Positions 7,842 through 63,104 of a stretch of 64,000 nucleotides of DNA are shown here, in pieces. Each line of letters begins with the position of its first letter. The stretch's first letter is position 1. The DNA lies in the IMG/VR virus record IMGVR_UViG_3300035682_000004. The stretch is one strand, 5' to 3'. The notes beneath the pieces are model-generated. The model searched no databases, was not told the DNA's origin, and worked only from the letters and a program-made list of their open reading frames with translations. This DNA comes from a virus. A program made the translations under genes and the position numbers.

Positions 7842-7851
7842 TATATTTATA
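7818..7851 (+). promoter_or_regulatory. Composite early (CTTG-N20-TATATTTA) and late (ATATTTATA) promoter for the lipoprotein/tRNA cluster
   Basis: CTTG 7818-21, TATATTTA 7842-49, ATATTTATA 7843-51. Confidence 0.6.
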
Positions 7852-29749: not shown

Positions 29750-29989
29750 ATGAAAGACATTACAAGAATGCAACAATTAGCTGGTATAATTAAAGAAGAG
29801 CCAGAATCAGTTGACAGCACCTTGTTTAAACTTAAACAAGAATTCATGCCCGCTTTTGAACAATATGTTGATTTATATGAAATAGAAGTATTTGAAAATC
29901 CTAAAGACGATGAATATCAAAAAATACAAGAAGAATTCGCTAAACAATTAAAAGAAGTATTGTTTACATTACAACATGGAGAATTTTAA
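29750..29989 (+). CDS. Putative internal head protein, RMQQLAGII tag
   Basis: Leader matches the scaffold C-terminus; late promoter. Confidence 0.65.
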   Translation: MKDITRMQQLAGIIKEEPESVDSTLFKLKQEFMPAFEQYVDLYEIEVFENPKDDEYQKIQEEFAKQLKEVLFTLQHGEF

Positions 29990-30010: not shown

Positions 30011-30035
30011 AAGCTTGGGAAACCAAGCTTTTTTT
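30011..30035 (+). terminator. Intrinsic terminator, overlapping a CTTG promoter variant for primase
   Basis: aagcttgg-gaaa-ccaagctt followed by a T-run. Confidence 0.8.
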
Positions 30036-30050
30036 GTTATAGTACAAGGT

Positions 30051-31765: not shown

Positions 31766-31793
31766 GTATTAATATTTATATATAAACATTAAG

Positions 31794-32774
31794 ATGATTT
31801 CTTTAATTGAGCTTTTAAAATCAATAACTTTAGAAGGTGGCAACGTATTTGGCACCACCTCACGTATTAAAAAGGAATATGTTCAACCAACTCTTAAAAA
31901 ATTTACCGCTGAATTAAGTAAAATATATCCAAAAGTAAAATTTAACTTTAATACTTTAGGATCAGCAGGCAAAAGCGAGGATTCAGGTGATATTGATTTA
32001 GGTATGAGTAGTGATCAATTTATAGATGAAAACGGTAATCCATTATTATCTAATTGGGGTATTGATAAAGTTGAATTTAATAGGTTATATGAAAAAATCA
32101 GAAAAAATGCAAAATCTGCAAAAGAAGCTCAAAGTAAATTAAGAGCTATGTTAGAATTAATAGCTATTGATATTGAAAAGAAATCAGATTATATAGATAC
32201 TAATTTAAAATCAGCGGGTAATGGCTCAATATTTTGCAATTTTCCTCAATATAATGAAAAAGGAGAAATACTTAATGATAAAGCAGTACAAATAGATATT
32301 AATGTAGGTGATTTAGATTGGTTAAATTTTAGTTACTATTCTAATACTATTAAAGATAATGTAAAAGGTTTACATAGAACTCAATTAATGGTAGCTATGT
32401 TTAAAGTATTAGATAAAATTTTTAGTCATGGTGTTGGTGTTAAAGATAAAACAACAAAAGAAATAGTAGCAACTAATCCTCAAGAAGCATTAGCTATATT
32501 AAATCAAGGATTTGGACTTAATTTATCTCAAGATGTATTAAATGATTATTTTGAATTAATGGAGGTTTTAAGACAAAGTGTTGAAAATAAAAAATTATCT
32601 GAAAAGACATTTAATCAAATATTAGATGTATATTTAAAAATATTAGACTCAACTAATAGAGCTGATATTCCTTTAGATCTTCAAGAATACTGGATTGCTA
32701 ATCAAAAGCGTTTAGATCTTAAAGGTAAATTACTACCAAAGGATTCTAACTTAATTAAATATAAAATAGCATAA
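31794..32774 (+). CDS. Pol-beta-superfamily nucleotidyltransferase with head-cargo leader
   Basis: LGSAGK..DSGDIDL...VQID; leader MISLIELLKSITLE. Confidence 0.75.
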   Translation: MISLIELLKSITLEGGNVFGTTSRIKKEYVQPTLKKFTAELSKIYPKVKFNFNTLGSAGKSEDSGDIDLGMSSDQFIDENGNPLLSNWGIDKVEFNRLYEKIRKNAKSAKEAQSKLRAMLELIAIDIEKKSDYIDTNLKSAGNGSIFCNFPQYNEKGEILNDKAVQIDINVGDLDWLNFSYYSNTIKDNVKGLHRTQLMVAMFKVLDKIFSHGVGVKDKTTKEIVATNPQEALAILNQGFGLNLSQDVLNDYFELMEVLRQSVENKKLSEKTFNQILDVYLKILDSTNRADIPLDLQEYWIANQKRLDLKGKLLPKDSNLIKYKIA

Positions 32775-35248
32775 TGTCAGGTTCAGCAGGTGGAAATAGA
32801 ATATCTAGGGCGGCGGTAGAAAAAACTGTTCAGGATTATATAGACAATGTATTATCTAAATTCCCTGGATTTAAGGACGCTAAGGCAACTGGTTCTTATA
32901 ACACAGGGACTAAACAAGATTTTGGTGATATTGATTTAATTGTTCATTTAGATAGTAAAGATAAAAAATTAGTTAAACAAGATTTAGCTAAATATTTTGC
33001 TTCTTTGCCCGATTCAGTTATTGTACCTTTTAAAAGTGATAAATATAAAGGAAAAAAATCACTTAGTAGTGGTGAATTAGTAACTGTATTATATCCTATA
33101 AGTGGTGTACCTGATGAATTTGTTCAAATAGATAACATTGTTTCTATTAGTGAAGAAGAATCAACATTTAAAAATACATTCTTAGACTACCCAGCTGAAG
33201 TACAAGGTTTACTTTTAGGTTTAGCTAAAGTAATTTGTTTAGAAGAAGATCCTAAAAAAATATTCGCTAGATTAGGTATTACTAATGTACCTGAACTTGA
33301 AGCAAATCAAGAATATGAATTCAATTTATCAAGCGCTGGATTAACATTACGTATAGTAACATTAGATAATTTTAAAGAACTTGATAGAACTGAGGTTTGG
33401 AAATCTTCAAATTGGAGTGTTGTTAAAAAATTATTCGACAATTACAATATAGATGGTGATTTTAAAACATTATTACAAGATTTAAAATCTAAATTAAAAA
33501 ACGAACGTTCTAAAAATAGAATAAAAGGTATATTTAAATCAATGGTATCTATTAAAAGTGGAGAAGTTGATACACCTAAAGGTGATAATAAACAAGCAGC
33601 ATTAGATGCTGTTAGTAGTTTATTAGAAAATAAATTATTTAAAGGATTAGTTAGAGAATTAATCTTGCCTTTAATTGAAGCAGATTCAAAGAAAACAGTA
33701 GCAATTTATCCAGGTGGTTTTAAACCACCTCATAAAGGTCATTTTAAAGCTGTTAAAATAGTATTAGAAAAATTTCCACAAATAAATAAATTTATTATTT
33801 ATGTCGGATCAGGAACAAGAAATGGAATTACTTCACTTGAATCAAAAGATATTTGGGAAATCTATGAAAAATATTTACCTTCAAACATAGAAATACAATT
33901 AACTAGTTCACCAGTTAAAGCAACTTATAAGTATGCTGAGACTCATCCTGATGAACATATAATATGGGTTGAAGGAGTTCGCCCAAACAATAGTAAAGAT
34001 TTAGCAGACATAGCGTCAAAAACAGGAGCTATAAGTGATTATAAAAATATTGAATTAGCTATTATTGATACTCAATTAGATGAAAGTGGAACAGACGCTC
34101 GTCAAGCATTAAAAAAAGGACAAGAAGCATTTTTGCCTTTTATTCCTGAAGAAGTAAAAGAAAAAACAAAAATATTTAATACTTTATCTAAAGTAGTTAC
34201 AGAACTAGTAACAAACACAAAAGTTATTTGTGATAAATGTGGTTGGACCTGGAAAATAGCTGATGGAGGTAAAGATTTATATATATGTCATAACAAATTA
34301 CCAGATGGTAGTATATGTGAACATGATAATAATCCTAATTTAAATGAAGGAACTTGTGATTATGATACAGATGTTAAAACAGGTAAAAAATTAGATACAC
34401 CTGGTGGATTAGAAGAAGGTAAGCAAGTTGGTCCTTTATATCACTACACATCAGCCGATGGATTAAAAGGCATCCTTCAGTCTAATAAAATAAATACCTC
34501 TGAAGAAAATTATTTAGGTAATGAATTATATTATATTTCATTTACTCGTAATAAAAATTTCTATAAAAAAGGATCTAATTTTGGAGTAAAAACAGATTAT
34601 AGAATTACATTAGATGGAGACAAATTATCTGACAAATATAAAATAACACCTTTTGCCTACAGACCGGGATGGAACTATGAAGACAATTGGGAATATAATT
34701 GGTTAGAAGATGAACCTGAAAGTGTAGTAAGAGATTTCTTTAATAATACTGGTGATTATGATGAACAAGAAGAAAGAATATCTTTTAAAGGTCCTGAAGA
34801 TGGAATTGATAACATAAAAAATTATATCTTAGCTGTTAATAAAGTAGAAGATTTAAAAGAAGGTAAAGAAAATAATGACTATAAAAAATATATTCCTGGA
34901 TTAACTAAATATATGATTGATCAAGGAATGAATATTAAACCATTACCTGTTGTTAAATTTATTAACAATGATAAAGCTAATGCTGAAAACGTATTTGGTA
35001 AAACAGCATTTTACAACCCAGAAGAAAAATCAATTACTTTATTTACTATGAATAGACATCCTAAAGATGTTTTACGTTCATTTTCACATGAAATGGTACA
35101 TCATATGCAAAATTTAGAAAATAGATTAAATAATATTAACACTACTAATACAAACGAAGACGGAGATTTACCTGAAATTGAAGAAGAAGCTTACAAATTA
35201 GGAAATATGATGTTACGTACATATGAAGACAGTAAAAAAAATAAATAA
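32774..35248 (+). CDS. Multidomain polyprotein: NTase, HxGH nucleotidylyltransferase, Zn finger, ART-like domain and zincin
   Basis: GSY..DFGDID..VQID; PGGFKPPHKGH; CDKC..C..C; LYHYT..ISFTR..EQEE; HEMVH. Confidence 0.7.
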   Translation: MSGSAGGNRISRAAVEKTVQDYIDNVLSKFPGFKDAKATGSYNTGTKQDFGDIDLIVHLDSKDKKLVKQDLAKYFASLPDSVIVPFKSDKYKGKKSLSSGELVTVLYPISGVPDEFVQIDNIVSISEEESTFKNTFLDYPAEVQGLLLGLAKVICLEEDPKKIFARLGITNVPELEANQEYEFNLSSAGLTLRIVTLDNFKELDRTEVWKSSNWSVVKKLFDNYNIDGDFKTLLQDLKSKLKNERSKNRIKGIFKSMVSIKSGEVDTPKGDNKQAALDAVSSLLENKLFKGLVRELILPLIEADSKKTVAIYPGGFKPPHKGHFKAVKIVLEKFPQINKFIIYVGSGTRNGITSLESKDIWEIYEKYLPSNIEIQLTSSPVKATYKYAETHPDEHIIWVEGVRPNNSKDLADIASKTGAISDYKNIELAIIDTQLDESGTDARQALKKGQEAFLPFIPEEVKEKTKIFNTLSKVVTELVTNTKVICDKCGWTWKIADGGKDLYICHNKLPDGSICEHDNNPNLNEGTCDYDTDVKTGKKLDTPGGLEEGKQVGPLYHYTSADGLKGILQSNKINTSEENYLGNELYYISFTRNKNFYKKGSNFGVKTDYRITLDGDKLSDKYKITPFAYRPGWNYEDNWEYNWLEDEPESVVRDFFNNTGDYDEQEERISFKGPEDGIDNIKNYILAVNKVEDLKEGKENNDYKKYIPGLTKYMIDQGMNIKPLPVVKFINNDKANAENVFGKTAFYNPEEKSITLFTMNRHPKDVLRSFSHEMVHHMQNLENRLNNINTTNTNEDGDLPEIEEEAYKLGNMMLRTYEDSKKNK

Positions 35249-35267: not shown

Positions 35268-35663
35268 ATGAAAAAATTAATTGACCTTTTAAGAGAAAAT
35301 TTGGAAGAAAAAACAATGGAAGTAAAAGAAGTTATCACTAAAGACTACGATGTGGTTGATGAAGTAGGTAAATTCTTTGTTGTTATTAAACCAGACACTA
35401 AATCAACTAAAGAAAATATTTTATTTGATGCTGATGCATTCAAATTTGCTGATAAAATTAAAGGCGGATTAAAATTTGAAAATGTATTAGGTATGTTCAA
35501 AAATAAATCAGACGCTAGTAGAACAGCAACTGAAGCTTTAAAAGCTCGTGATACCCAAATTGATGACTTAAAAACATCAATGGATGAATTTAGAACATCT
35601 AGAGAGGATATTAAAACTAAAAAAGAAAAAGCTCAAGAATTAATTAAAAAATTACAGCAGTAA
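35268..35663 (+). CDS. Putative head cargo protein (MKKLIDLLRE leader)
   Basis: Leader family. Confidence 0.6.
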   Translation: MKKLIDLLRENLEEKTMEVKEVITKDYDVVDEVGKFFVVIKPDTKSTKENILFDADAFKFADKIKGGLKFENVLGMFKNKSDASRTATEALKARDTQIDDLKTSMDEFRTSREDIKTKKEKAQELIKKLQQ

Positions 35664-44376: not shown

Positions 44377-44745
44377 ATGAAACTATCAGAAATTAAAAAA
44401 GCAATTAAAGAAGAATATTCATCATCAAAAAAAGTATTAGCTATTGGTGGTGTAATTGTTATCAATCCTAAAGTTGCTAAAATGAAATACATTTTATCTG
44501 ATGTTAGAGCTGTGTTAGGCGTAACTATTGTTAATAATAGAGAATATCAATCAGGTAATCCATCATCACAATATGAATATGCTTATTTAGATATTAAAAT
44601 TGATCCATCACCATTCCCTAAAGGATTAAATGATACAGCTACTATTGTAACTAAAGTAGAAAAAGATATTAAATCAATTCGTGGTGTAGTTACATTTAAA
44701 TTAAAAGAAAAAGCACGTGATGCTAAAACTTGGACTATATCATAA
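44377..44745 (+). CDS. Small ferredoxin-fold-like protein, MKLSEIKKAIKE leader
   Basis: SDVRAVLGVT..DIKSIRGV internal symmetry; start corrected. Confidence 0.55.
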   Translation: MKLSEIKKAIKEEYSSSKKVLAIGGVIVINPKVAKMKYILSDVRAVLGVTIVNNREYQSGNPSSQYEYAYLDIKIDPSPFPKGLNDTATIVTKVEKDIKSIRGVVTFKLKEKARDAKTWTIS

Positions 44746-60642: not shown

Positions 60643-61248
60643 ATGAGACAAGTATTAATTGAAACACAATTATTCTCACCCAAAGCTGTTAGCTTAACTG
60701 AAGGAACTAATCCTGGAGGTAACCTATTAGTAAAAGGTGTATTAGCTACTGTCGAAGTAAAAAACGGTAATGGTAGATATTACGCTAAAGAATTATGGGA
60801 ACGTGAAATGGATCGCTACATGGAATCAATTCGTGAGAATAGAGCTTTAGGTGAATTAGACCACCCAGATTCTTCAATTATTAACTTAAAAAATGTTTCA
60901 CATAATATTAAAAAATGCTGGTGGGATGGAAATAATGTAATGGGTATGATTGAAATCTTACCTACTCCATCTGGTAACATTTTAAAAGCATTAATCGATA
61001 GTGGTATTACAGTAGGTGTATCATCAAGAGGAATGGGTTCATTAGAACAAAAAGGTAATGTAATGGAAGTACAAGATGACTTTGAATTACTATGTTGGGA
61101 TTTCGTTTCAACACCTTCTAATCCGGGTTCATGGATGCTACCAACTAGCTTAAATGAATCATATATTCCTAGTATAAATCAATACAGTAAAATTAATTCA
61201 ATTATTACTGATATTTTATGTGCTAATGGATCATGTCCGTTATTCTAA
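60643..61248 (+). CDS. gp21: Prohead core protease, T4 gp21-like
   Basis: KNGNGRYY, ALGELDHP, VSH, GVSSRGMGS, DFVSTPS. Confidence 0.95.
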   Translation: MRQVLIETQLFSPKAVSLTEGTNPGGNLLVKGVLATVEVKNGNGRYYAKELWEREMDRYMESIRENRALGELDHPDSSIINLKNVSHNIKKCWWDGNNVMGMIEILPTPSGNILKALIDSGITVGVSSRGMGSLEQKGNVMEVQDDFELLCWDFVSTPSNPGSWMLPTSLNESYIPSINQYSKINSIITDILCANGSCPLF

Positions 61249-62015: not shown

Positions 62016-63104
62016 ATGAGTAAAAACAGAGATTTGCTTAAAGAAGCAATCGAAGATGCTAAAGTTGTTAAAGAAACAGCAATAGCAAGCGCAAAAGCTG
62101 CTCTTGAAGAACACTTTACTCCACAATTAAAATCTATGCTATCAGCTAAACTTGCAGAAATGGAAGAAAAGGAAGAGGCAGAAATGGACGATAATATGGA
62201 AGAAATGTATTCTAAAAAAGATGAAAACTTAATGGGCTACAAACCAGTTAAAAAAGAAGAAATTGAGTATGATCACGGTAACATCGACACAGAAGAAGGT
62301 AACCCGTTAGATGAACTTAATCTTGAAGAATTATTAGCTGAATTAGAAGAAGACATGGAAAAAGAATCCGCGTATGAAGCTAAAGAAGACGACAAAATGA
62401 AGAAAGAAGAATTAAACGAAGCAGAAGGTGAAGAAGAAGTTGAAACTGAAGAAGAAATCAACATCGAGGACATGACTGAAGAAGAGTTAAAATCATTCAT
62501 TGAAGACGTAATTAAAGACATGGTTGAAGCTGGTGAATTAGAAGCTGGTGAAGGCATGGAAGACATGAAAGGTGAAGAAGGTGAAGAAATGGAAAGTGAA
62601 GAAGAAGAAATTTCAATTGATGAAATTTTAGCTGAAATCGAATTAGATGAAGCTAAAAGAAAAAAACTAATTAAATCAAAAGACGAAGACAAAAAAGACA
62701 AAGAAGACGAAGAAGACAAAAAAGAAATCAAAAAACTTAAAAATGAGTTAGAAGAAGCTATGTCTACTATTTCTACTATGAGATCTGATATCAATGAAGT
62801 TAATTTGTTAAATGCGAAATTACTTTACACTAACAAAATTTTCAAAGCTAAAAACTTAACCGAGTCACAAAAAGTAAAGGTTTTAAATGCATTTGATAAA
62901 GCATCAACAGTAAAAGAAACTAAATTAGTATTCGAAACATTATCAGAAGGATTAAAAGAAACTTCTAAATCACATGTTAATGAATCATTAAAAACTAGTT
63001 TAGCATCTAAAACAACAGGTATCATGCCAACAGCAAGAAAGCCTATTGTAGAAGTTAATGACACATTCAAAAGAATGCAAAAAATAGCAGGAATTATTAA
63101 ATAA
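62016..63104 (+). CDS. Prohead scaffold protein
   Basis: Very acidic coiled coil between protease and MCP; LLKEAI.DAK, EVNLLNAKLLY.NK; start corrected to 62016. Confidence 0.85.
   Translation: MSKNRDLLKEAIEDAKVVKETAIASAKAALEEHFTPQLKSMLSAKLAEMEEKEEAEMDDNMEEMYSKKDENLMGYKPVKKEEIEYDHGNIDTEEGNPLDELNLEELLAELEEDMEKESAYEAKEDDKMKKEELNEAEGEEEVETEEEINIEDMTEEELKSFIEDVIKDMVEAGELEAGEGMEDMKGEEGEEMESEEEEISIDEILAEIELDEAKRKKLIKSKDEDKKDKEDEEDKKEIKKLKNELEEAMSTISTMRSDINEVNLLNAKLLYTNKIFKAKNLTESQKVKVLNAFDKASTVKETKLVFETLSEGLKETSKSHVNESLKTSLASKTTGIMPTARKPIVEVNDTFKRMQKIAGIIK

Follow-up and report, generated by a model that had tools for sequence, protein, structure and literature searches.

Proteins delivered from the capsid are the first move of phage T4 against host defences and, to our knowledge, the described examples are few and are single small proteins. 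The T4 protease gp21 cleaves after L/I-X-E (PMC9026906). Unrelated proteins reach the T4 head by means of a capsid targeting sequence (CTS) of 10 residues, MKTYQEFIAE, in which targeting depends on residues 4 and 7 and processing on residues 8 and 10 (PMC8442874; PMC9026906). A short x-x-E motif also marks the processing sites of many head-internal proteins, including some large enzymes, in the giant phages phiKZ, 201phi2-1 and SPN3US, where gp21-related proteases cleave after the Glu (PMC9026906). Here we analysed a 64,000-nucleotide stretch of viral DNA (IMG/VR record IMGVR_UViG_3300035682_000004, hereafter the window) in which two adjacent open reading frames (ORFs) may encode cargo of this kind, one of them as a chain of enzymes. 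The first ORF (31794-32774) codes for a protein of 326 residues (P326) and the second (32774-35248) for a protein of 824 residues, and they overlap by ATGA. The phage genome has a low GC content of about 29%, and every gene is on the + strand, as are the promoter-like motif and the modules described below. The nearest named relative is the Flavobacterium phage vB_FspM_immuto (immuto below), a 160-kb myovirus cultured on Flavobacterium sp. LMO8, with an identical gene order: primase, PD-(D/E)XK exonuclease, an ORF of about 300 residues and an ORF of about 900 residues annotated as 'NMN adenylyltransferase'.

As the best explanation, we propose that both ORFs are transcribed as a single unit in a T4-like phage with aquatic bacteria as hosts. 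By analogy with T4, they would encode capsid cargo that is processed in the head and ejected, a reading to which we give roughly even chances. P326, a Pol-beta-type nucleotidyltransferase (NTase), would be synthesised with a 14-residue leader like the T4 CTS, and the S77 prohead protease would remove this leader after Glu14 to leave GGNVF as the N-terminus. The 824-residue protein would be a precursor of five modules, namely a polymerase-X-like NTase (NT1), an HxGH nucleotidylyltransferase, a Zn ribbon, an ART-HYD1/Tpt1-like ADP-ribosyltransferase (ART) and a Wss1/SprT-like zincin, with an [L/I]xE site ahead of each module. As it has no leader of its own, it would need another route into the prohead, perhaps binding to the paralogous P326. 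The prohead protease would then split the precursor into separate enzymes, which would be ejected with the DNA. One may speculate that the uncut precursor would keep a toxin-type ART and a protease harmless in the producing cell. We infer packaging, cleavage and ejection, as well as the pairing of the two NTases and the targets of the enzymes. An earlier note on this DNA had already suggested an injected, protease-cleavable polyprotein. The S77 gene, the conservation of the sites, the indels between them and the leaders of stand-alone modules strengthen the polyprotein part of that suggestion, and cleavage, presence in the virion and injection are proposed on the T4 model.

The presumed processing enzyme, a T4 gp21-type prohead protease (Peptidase_S77), is encoded in the window at 60643-61248, and a scaffold protein and a gp23-like capsid protein are likewise present. 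The protease matches phrog_207 (head maturation protease; E 1e-56) and is 93% identical to an ORF of G001 that matches PF03420 (E 8e-33). The S77 family was found in all five other tested genomes that carry the gene pair. In the 824-residue protein, xxE sites are found at E285 (LLE), E302 (LIE), E477 (VTE), E525 (LNE), E548 (LEE) and E696 (LKE). The strict pattern [LI]xE[AGS] occurs five times, and four of these occurrences (302, 525, 548 and 696) are inside junction zones, which we defined from homology break points and which make up about 10% of the protein length; by our own arithmetic, the probability of such a placement is about 6e-4.

Comparison of homologues indicates that these positions are conserved, more than 80 diverse homologues having [L/I]xE directly ahead of each module. 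The junction Glu, with a hydrophobic residue at P3, is kept at 40-100% identity and across domain contexts. It precedes the ART module in 12 of 12 distinct contexts, [LIV]xE is always found ahead of the CxxCGWxW motif of the Zn ribbon (39/39 distinct contexts), and a junction Glu is present ahead of the zincin in most architectures. After NT1, one or two [L/I]xE sites are found in nearly all of 87 distinct sequences, the few exceptions having a single site, or none ahead of a short C-terminal tail. The 907-residue immuto orthologue has candidate junction sites at TLAE↓ALDDGSEVV..., RLPE↓GAEQEK... and VMAE↓GRYDTV.... Furthermore, homologues differ by the gain or loss of two spacers, of 17 and 23 residues, each bounded precisely by a pair of sites. 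The first one, NKLFKGLVRELILPLIE (33629-33679), separates LLE285↓ from LIE302↓ (arrows mark predicted cuts), both of which are conserved. It is missing in the L039-L053 group, which has TLTE↓AEG..., and it corresponds to the leader MNQLVRELVKGLFE↓ of split HxGH genes. The second one, GTCDYDTDVKTGKKLDTPGGLEE (34349-34417), between LNE525↓ and LEE548↓, is missing in the homologues P0002-P0004. As LNE↓ is directly joined to GKQVG in these proteins, the indel falls exactly between two xxE sites. The motifs, xxE sites and ART coordinates that the earlier note had read from the letters are all present, and the check that it proposed, a comparison of orthologues for module indels at xxE sites, found such indels precisely between sites, as in the two spacers. 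Its claim of a gp21-type site at every boundary holds for most of them, the HxGH-to-Zn-ribbon boundary being off consensus.

Every module also has stand-alone versions, encoded by genes of their own, in which the junction Glu closes an N-terminal leader. Stand-alone ART genes have leaders such as MIKLINLLKEITE↓GKQVG and MIKLLDLIE↓AKQVG, the stand-alone Zn ribbon has MIKLIELLDE↓DIIDGEIECGKCGW, and stand-alone HxGH genes have MNQLVRELVKGLFE↓QEKPK or MSSLGKFLADSLLE↓VEEQKK. Of 164 ART-like copies, taken from 150 cluster representatives, 160 have Glu at P1, 142 have Leu or Ile at P3 and 155 have Ala, Gly or Ser at P1'. ART-like copies also form tandem arrays, in proteins of 1200-1985 residues with three to six copies, each preceded by its own site. 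As a separate observation, a linker of the form (K/G)xAPYGSGYxP[LV]xE↓ recurs ahead of modules in P0060, P0076, L057, L059, L064 and P0119; it may be an extended recognition or docking element.

The strongest alternative, which we consider rather unlikely, is that the 824-residue protein remains uncut in the cytoplasm and works there as a multi-domain enzyme with a paralogous partner, in phage DNA replication or repair or in nucleotide or NAD+ metabolism. The [L/I]xE motifs would then be remnants of leaders from formerly separate genes, or ordinary linker features. This alternative draws on several of the observations that weigh against capsid cargo. The gene pair lies directly downstream of the primase and PD-(D/E)XK exonuclease genes, a site that would also suit a replication or repair enzyme, and this synteny is kept with immuto and with locus L085. 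The fold of NT1 is polymerase-X-like. The 824-residue protein has no N-terminal leader, and its MSGSAGGN N-terminus is itself highly conserved. P326 is leaderless in the cultured immuto and in a whole subgroup, so that capsid loading is not universal for the pair. The overall density of LxE is near chance, with 14 plain [LI]xE motifs in the 824-residue protein versus 10.1 expected. Other points also count against cargo. In a class of 640-residue homologues, the junction between the Zn ribbon and the zincin has no LxE, and the site between the HxGH domain and the Zn ribbon is VTE↓L in the window, off the L/I-x-E consensus, homologues mostly having LQE or IQE. The Glu preceding KQVG may belong to the ART fold instead of marking a cut, the promoter-like motif described below is called late from the genes downstream of it, and we found no virion proteome of any relative in the literature, the immuto papers being on other topics.

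However, remnants would not be expected to stay invariant in linkers at such levels of identity and in different domain orders. The residues at P1' in the ART-like copies are those of the protease consensus, the leadered and leaderless forms of P326 have an identical predicted mature N-terminus, and the pair is preceded by a separate promoter-like motif that is common to structural genes.

The leaders themselves bear on this question. The CTS pattern, with about 10 residues, hydrophobic residues at positions 4, 7 and 8 and Glu at position 10, fits the stand-alone modules exactly, and P326 has a 14-residue variant of it, MISLIELLKSITLE. The most frequent leader of the ART family places Glu at position 10 (11 residues including P1'), and some leaders are close to the T4 sequence itself (MKPYKQFIAE↓A, MKSFKEFITE↓A and MKTFKQFISE↓A, compared with MKTYQEFIAE↓A in T4). 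CTS-like N-termini are found in 5 of 92 ORFs of the window versus 0.25 expected (P 6e-6). It could be argued that these peptides, at N-termini and junctions alike, only resemble the T4 CTS and are tags with another purpose, such as docking to a phage chaperone, a membrane or a replication compartment. Amphipathic leaders could indeed bind many partners. Nevertheless, we find this quite improbable, as the leaders end in a protease motif, their length and positions 4, 7, 8 and 10 match the determinants of the T4 CTS, and they resemble the N-termini of the phage's own scaffold (..RDLLKE↓A) and capsid (..IQSLLE↓S) proteins.

A promoter-like motif, TATTTATA (31773-31780), is found 21 nt upstream of the P326 ORF. 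It occurs upstream of ten + strand genes, P326 and nine others, at 11-27 nt in one count and at 11-49 nt in the full list (positions 7844, 13456, 16032, 26518, 29728, 31773, 38679, 43707, 55697 and 57613). Among the genes that follow it are those of the portal (55724) and of the baseplate or tail region (13474, 16045 and 26544). We consider that it is probably the late-promoter element of this phage. The T4 late-promoter word TATAAATA is not enriched in the window (32 matches versus 28.5 expected), and a sigma-70 promoter scan did not exceed chance. Upstream of the primase gene, a terminator-like hairpin (30011-30030; 30011-30040 with its T run) separates this gene from the preceding unit; because it is directly ahead, the primase probably starts at ATG 30051 rather than at TTG 30015. 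A late promoter and a 'family-B leader' had been predicted for this operon: the motif and the leader are both in place, and the late timing is deduced from the genes that the motif precedes.

The family-B leader is the P326 leader MISLIELLKSITLE (31794-31835), which ends directly before the invariant GGNVF and resembles the leaders of the genes at 44745, 45794 and 46551. Homologues of P326 begin with MI(S/K)L..LL..I.xE↓GGNVF, with a T4-like MKSFKTFLTE↓GGNVF, or directly with MGGNVF, as does the immuto orthologue. The predicted cut product is therefore the natural N-terminus of the leaderless forms. Many homologues have Glu at both positions 10 and 14 of the leader. The body of P326 (31836-32774) is a probable NTase of the Pol-beta superfamily, called from its motifs G56-S57, D66xD68 and VQID168 (Q166-x-D168), which are invariant in 35 homologues. 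Direct searches with P326 gave no Pfam or PDB-chain sequence match, and a Pfam scan of the 35 homologues gave only noise. One Atlas cluster for P326 has NTP_transf_2 on 33% of its members. P326 and NT1 share three motifs in the same order (GS, GDIDL and VQID), and the GS..GDIDL region gives weak matches between them (BLAST E 0.013; hhalign E 0.013, probability 3%). At this profile-profile probability, paralogy of the two proteins beyond the active-site motifs is unsupported.

The first module of the 824-residue protein, NT1 (residues 1-285; 32774-33628), appears to consist of a palm, a thumb and a C-terminal helical part in an AlphaFold model of residues 1-300 (pLDDT 89.3). G40, S41, D52, D54 and D120, in the motifs G40-S41, D52xD54 and VQID120, are invariant in 32 homologues. 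A Foldseek search with the model retrieved Pol lambda and Pol beta (E 2e-7). Using VIA-align, the matches were Pol beta, TdT, Pol lambda, Leishmania Pol beta, Thermus PolX and ASFV Pol X, with Z-scores of 10.1-11.3 and 163-181 residues aligned over both palm and thumb (model residues 1-234). In contrast, TUTases, CD-NTases and similar enzymes reached Z-scores of at most 9.4 and matched the palm alone. Weak Pfam DNA_pol_B_palm matches were obtained for three homologues, and a direct NT1 sequence search against PDB chains gave nothing. As modelled, NT1 has the features by which family X is defined, a palm with the GS motif and three carboxylates, and a thumb. This likeness points to nucleic-acid ends rather than signalling nucleotides as substrates. 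For the tandem Pol-beta-type NTases proposed by the earlier note, NT1 is supported by its predicted fold and P326 by its invariant motifs.

The next module (residues 303-477; 33680-34204) has the motifs PHKGH 319-323 and SGTDAR 438-443 of an HxGH, cytidylyltransferase-like nucleotidylyltransferase. PF01467 scores 17.4 bits on the window protein against a cut-off of 21; on close homologues, the full model is aligned with scores of 26-26.7 bits. Viral cytidylyltransferase-like proteins make up the nearest Atlas clusters. From these sequence matches we place the domain in the cytidylyltransferase-like superfamily, which agrees with the initial HxGH call. The more specific identity of an NMN adenylyltransferase was set aside as unproven: for NadD, NadM and NadR the best score was 24 bits versus cut-offs of 127-409, with about 40 N-terminal residues matched. 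NCBIfam models of PPAT gave similar scores over about 40 N-terminal residues, also far below their cut-offs, and a direct sequence search against PDB chains gave only marginal PPAT matches (E 0.14). The Zn ribbon that follows (residues 478-525; 34205-34348) has C486xxC489 ... C505 ... C514 and a weak Pfam Zn_ribbon_recom match. Stand-alone Zn-ribbon proteins (L030:10162-10650, L067:6774-7268 and L020:11143-11742) combine the leader MIKLIELLDE with a basic, conserved domain at the C-terminus (..KFKVYVKNPKTGKVVKVNFG..).

The fourth module (residues 549-696; 34418-34861) is assigned to the ART fold, and the fifth to the zincins, on the basis of VIA-align Z-scores, motifs and Pfam. Both were modelled together (residues 535-824; pLDDT 81), and Foldseek gave no match below E 0.04 with this two-module model. 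The ART-like motifs are LYHYT 555-559, ISFTR 588-592 and DEQEER 663-668, with H557, S589-x-T591-R592 and E664-x-E666-E667 as key residues. The best VIA-align match is Tpt1 (Z 9.2, rmsd 2.8, 95 residues aligned; a second Tpt1 at Z 8.5), followed by DarT (7.4-6.5) and Scabin (7.2). TreX, Tne2, TreTu and diphtheria toxin were also matched, and all these alignments span model residues 11-162. Of the 50 VIA-align rows, about 19 fall on the ART module, most of them from known ART-fold enzymes. The model indicates that residues 549-696 have an ART fold closest to those of Tpt1 and DarT. Models support the folds of both this module and NT1, and it was on ART and NTase folds that the injected-kit proposal had been made to depend. 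Tox-ART-HYD1 (PF15633) matches the window module with E 4.5e-4 and 21.2 bits versus a cut-off of 25, and the relatives P0255 and P0261 exceed this cut-off, with 31.6 and 39.9 bits. When the family was checked for the H-Y-[EDQ] signature, H557 and the acidic residues E664 and E666 were found to be conserved, and the Tyr was not evident. This ART-like domain has 844 relatives in metagenomes.

The last module (residues 697-824; 34862-35248, stop codon included) is a small zincin with the motif HEMVH 772-776 (H772-E773-x-x-H776), followed by E803 and E805; these five residues are invariant in homologues. VIA-align matched it with Wss1 (Z 8.0, 102 residues aligned), PprI (7.8), SPRTN (7.1), ArdC (6.5) and many other zincins, and Foldseek with PprI (probability 0.96) and SPRTN (0.93). 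As modelled, it has the traits of a small Wss1/SprT-like zincin, with a Glu presumably acting as the third zinc ligand. That this zincin, rather than the prohead protease, cuts the precursor in cis or in trans, in the cytoplasm and independently of the capsid, strikes us as very improbable: in its favour, nearly all family members have the module, its catalytic residues are in place and self-cleavage is established for Wss1/SprT-like proteases, but the junction motif is the gp21 consensus, the same motif closes the leaders of zincin-free proteins, and the site is kept in forms in which NT1 stands alone without a zincin.

What such enzymes would do in a host can be glimpsed from their structural neighbours. 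Pol X, Tpt1, DarT, Tre23, Wss1/SPRTN and ArdC suggest activities on nucleic-acid ends or bases, and on NAD+. Our best guess is that the kit handles NAD+ or ADP-ribose and modifies nucleic acids, either incoming or of the host. More generally, and with somewhat less confidence than in the cargo reading itself, we suggest that T4-like aquatic phages might load sets of enzymes as inactive polyproteins that the prohead protease activates. The active parts would be polymerase-X-like NTases, an NAD+-linked transferase, a toxin-type ART for nucleic acids and a protease. This would make a modular first-strike kit with exchangeable parts, delivered along with the DNA, in which the leader of about 10 residues ending in LxE serves as a universal adaptor for single or fused genes.

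The gene pair belongs to a large and variable family. The 824-residue protein has more than 1486 metagenomic homologues, and P326 is directly upstream of NT1 wherever upstream sequence exists (80 viral loci). The constant core of the large homologues is NT1 plus the HxGH domain, to which a zincin is nearly always added. A subset has the Zn ribbon and only a few have the ART module; in P0076, the ART module comes after the zincin. Many large homologues have further C-terminal domains. The protein of L003 (5971-9360) shares 99% identity with the window in its ART module but 66% in its HxGH domain, which indicates that modules have been exchanged, and recently. In L003, about 300 additional residues separate the ART module from the zincin. 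NT1 is a separate gene in L036, L068, L069 and L078. A homologue of a 131-residue, leader-bearing gene of the window (35268-35663; L036:4690-5066) separates the NT1 gene from the HxGH-zincin gene in L036 and L037, so that the protein fused in the window is split there.

Among 50,697 phage records searched by tblastn, NT1 matched only immuto phages, and the ART-like module gave only weak matches to Dickeya jumbo phages (E 6e-4). These records thus offer no cultured system with the ART module. At the equivalent position of L085 (5591-11080), in the order GIY-YIG, primase, exonuclease and then this gene, a protein of 1829 residues comprises DUF5661, five ART-HYD1-like copies, a NUDIX domain and a weak NTase match, with [LI]xE↓[AG] ahead of each copy. 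The 1200-residue protein of L084 (1992-5594), with six ART-like copies, agrees with its database entry only when TGA is translated as Trp, an indication that this phage has a recoded stop codon.

Leaders of the same style are found elsewhere in the window. Leaders of the MIKLINLLKE↓A type precede unrelated ORFs without a PHROG match, at 44745, 45794, 46551, 35268 and 43718, and we regard these ORFs, from their N-termini, as further candidate capsid cargo. The scaffold protein (62016-63104) ends with RMQKIAGIIK, and the ORFs at 29750, 38706, 47343 and 47624 start with a near-identical peptide, followed by IxE.

If the cargo reading is correct, precursors of several enzymes are delivered by a phage group that is very common in the environment. 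The rule that a leader or junction ends with L/I-x-E-(A/G/S) would then predict capsid cargo from sequence in thousands of uncultured phages. The locus would also reveal a new phage-borne ART family and a pair of polymerase-X-like enzymes, and the natural leaders could be used for loading foreign proteins into phage heads.

The enzymes of the window can each be compared with described families. Like other family X polymerases, NT1 has a palm and a thumb (Z 10.1-11.3), the GS motif and the DxD...D triad, and, like ASFV Pol X, it is without an 8-kDa or fingers domain. Unlike them, it has an extra C-terminal helical part, shares only about 10-19% sequence similarity with them and is always paired with the gene of a second, more divergent NTase. 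The ART module shares its fold and the conserved His of the first motif with Tre23, Tpt1/KptA and DarT, and the enzymes nearest to it in structure have RNA or DNA as substrates. Tre23, the only characterised HYD1 enzyme, modifies 23S rRNA by ADP-ribosylation (PMC8661411). The window module differs from ART-HYD1, Tpt1 and DarT by having SxTR as the second motif, rather than a conserved Tyr, and ExEE as the third. Unlike ART-HYD1 toxins, it is not adjoined by an immunity gene and scores below the Pfam cut-off, and unlike Tpt1, it is without an N-terminal RNA-binding lobe. The zincin resembles Wss1/SPRTN and ArdC, the latter being carried into a new cell along with DNA, in its HExxH motif, downstream Glu and minimal zincin fold (Z 8.0-6.5). 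It differs from them by the absence of detectable sequence similarity and of SHP or ssDNA-binding domains.

As a delivery system, the locus can be set beside those of giant phages and of T4. We know of no ejection or inner-body proteins of giant phages that are chains of unrelated enzyme modules also existing as leader-tagged genes. The giant-phage systems also differ by their motif, for which few determinants besides Glu are described (PMC9026906). The closest parallel is with the internal proteins IPI-III and Alt of T4: an S77-family protease, a cut motif of L/I-x-E followed by A/G/S, leaders of about 10 residues with hydrophobic positions 4, 7 and 8 and Glu at position 10, some of them near MKTYQEFIAE, and a cargo that includes an ADP-ribosyltransferase, which is Alt in T4. 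T4 cargo, in contrast, consists of single proteins cut once or twice, whereas here a chain of 824 residues has five modules with a site before each. Alt is an R-S-E ART, and the window ART lies on the H-Y-[EDQ] or HYD1-Tpt1-DarT side of the superfamily. The cargo here would also include polymerase-X-like NTases, an HxGH transferase and a zincin. Relative to the T4 system of CTS, internal proteins and Alt, what would be new is cargo in the form of a polyprotein, together with further types of enzymes and an ART family, also new, that is found largely in uncultured phages.

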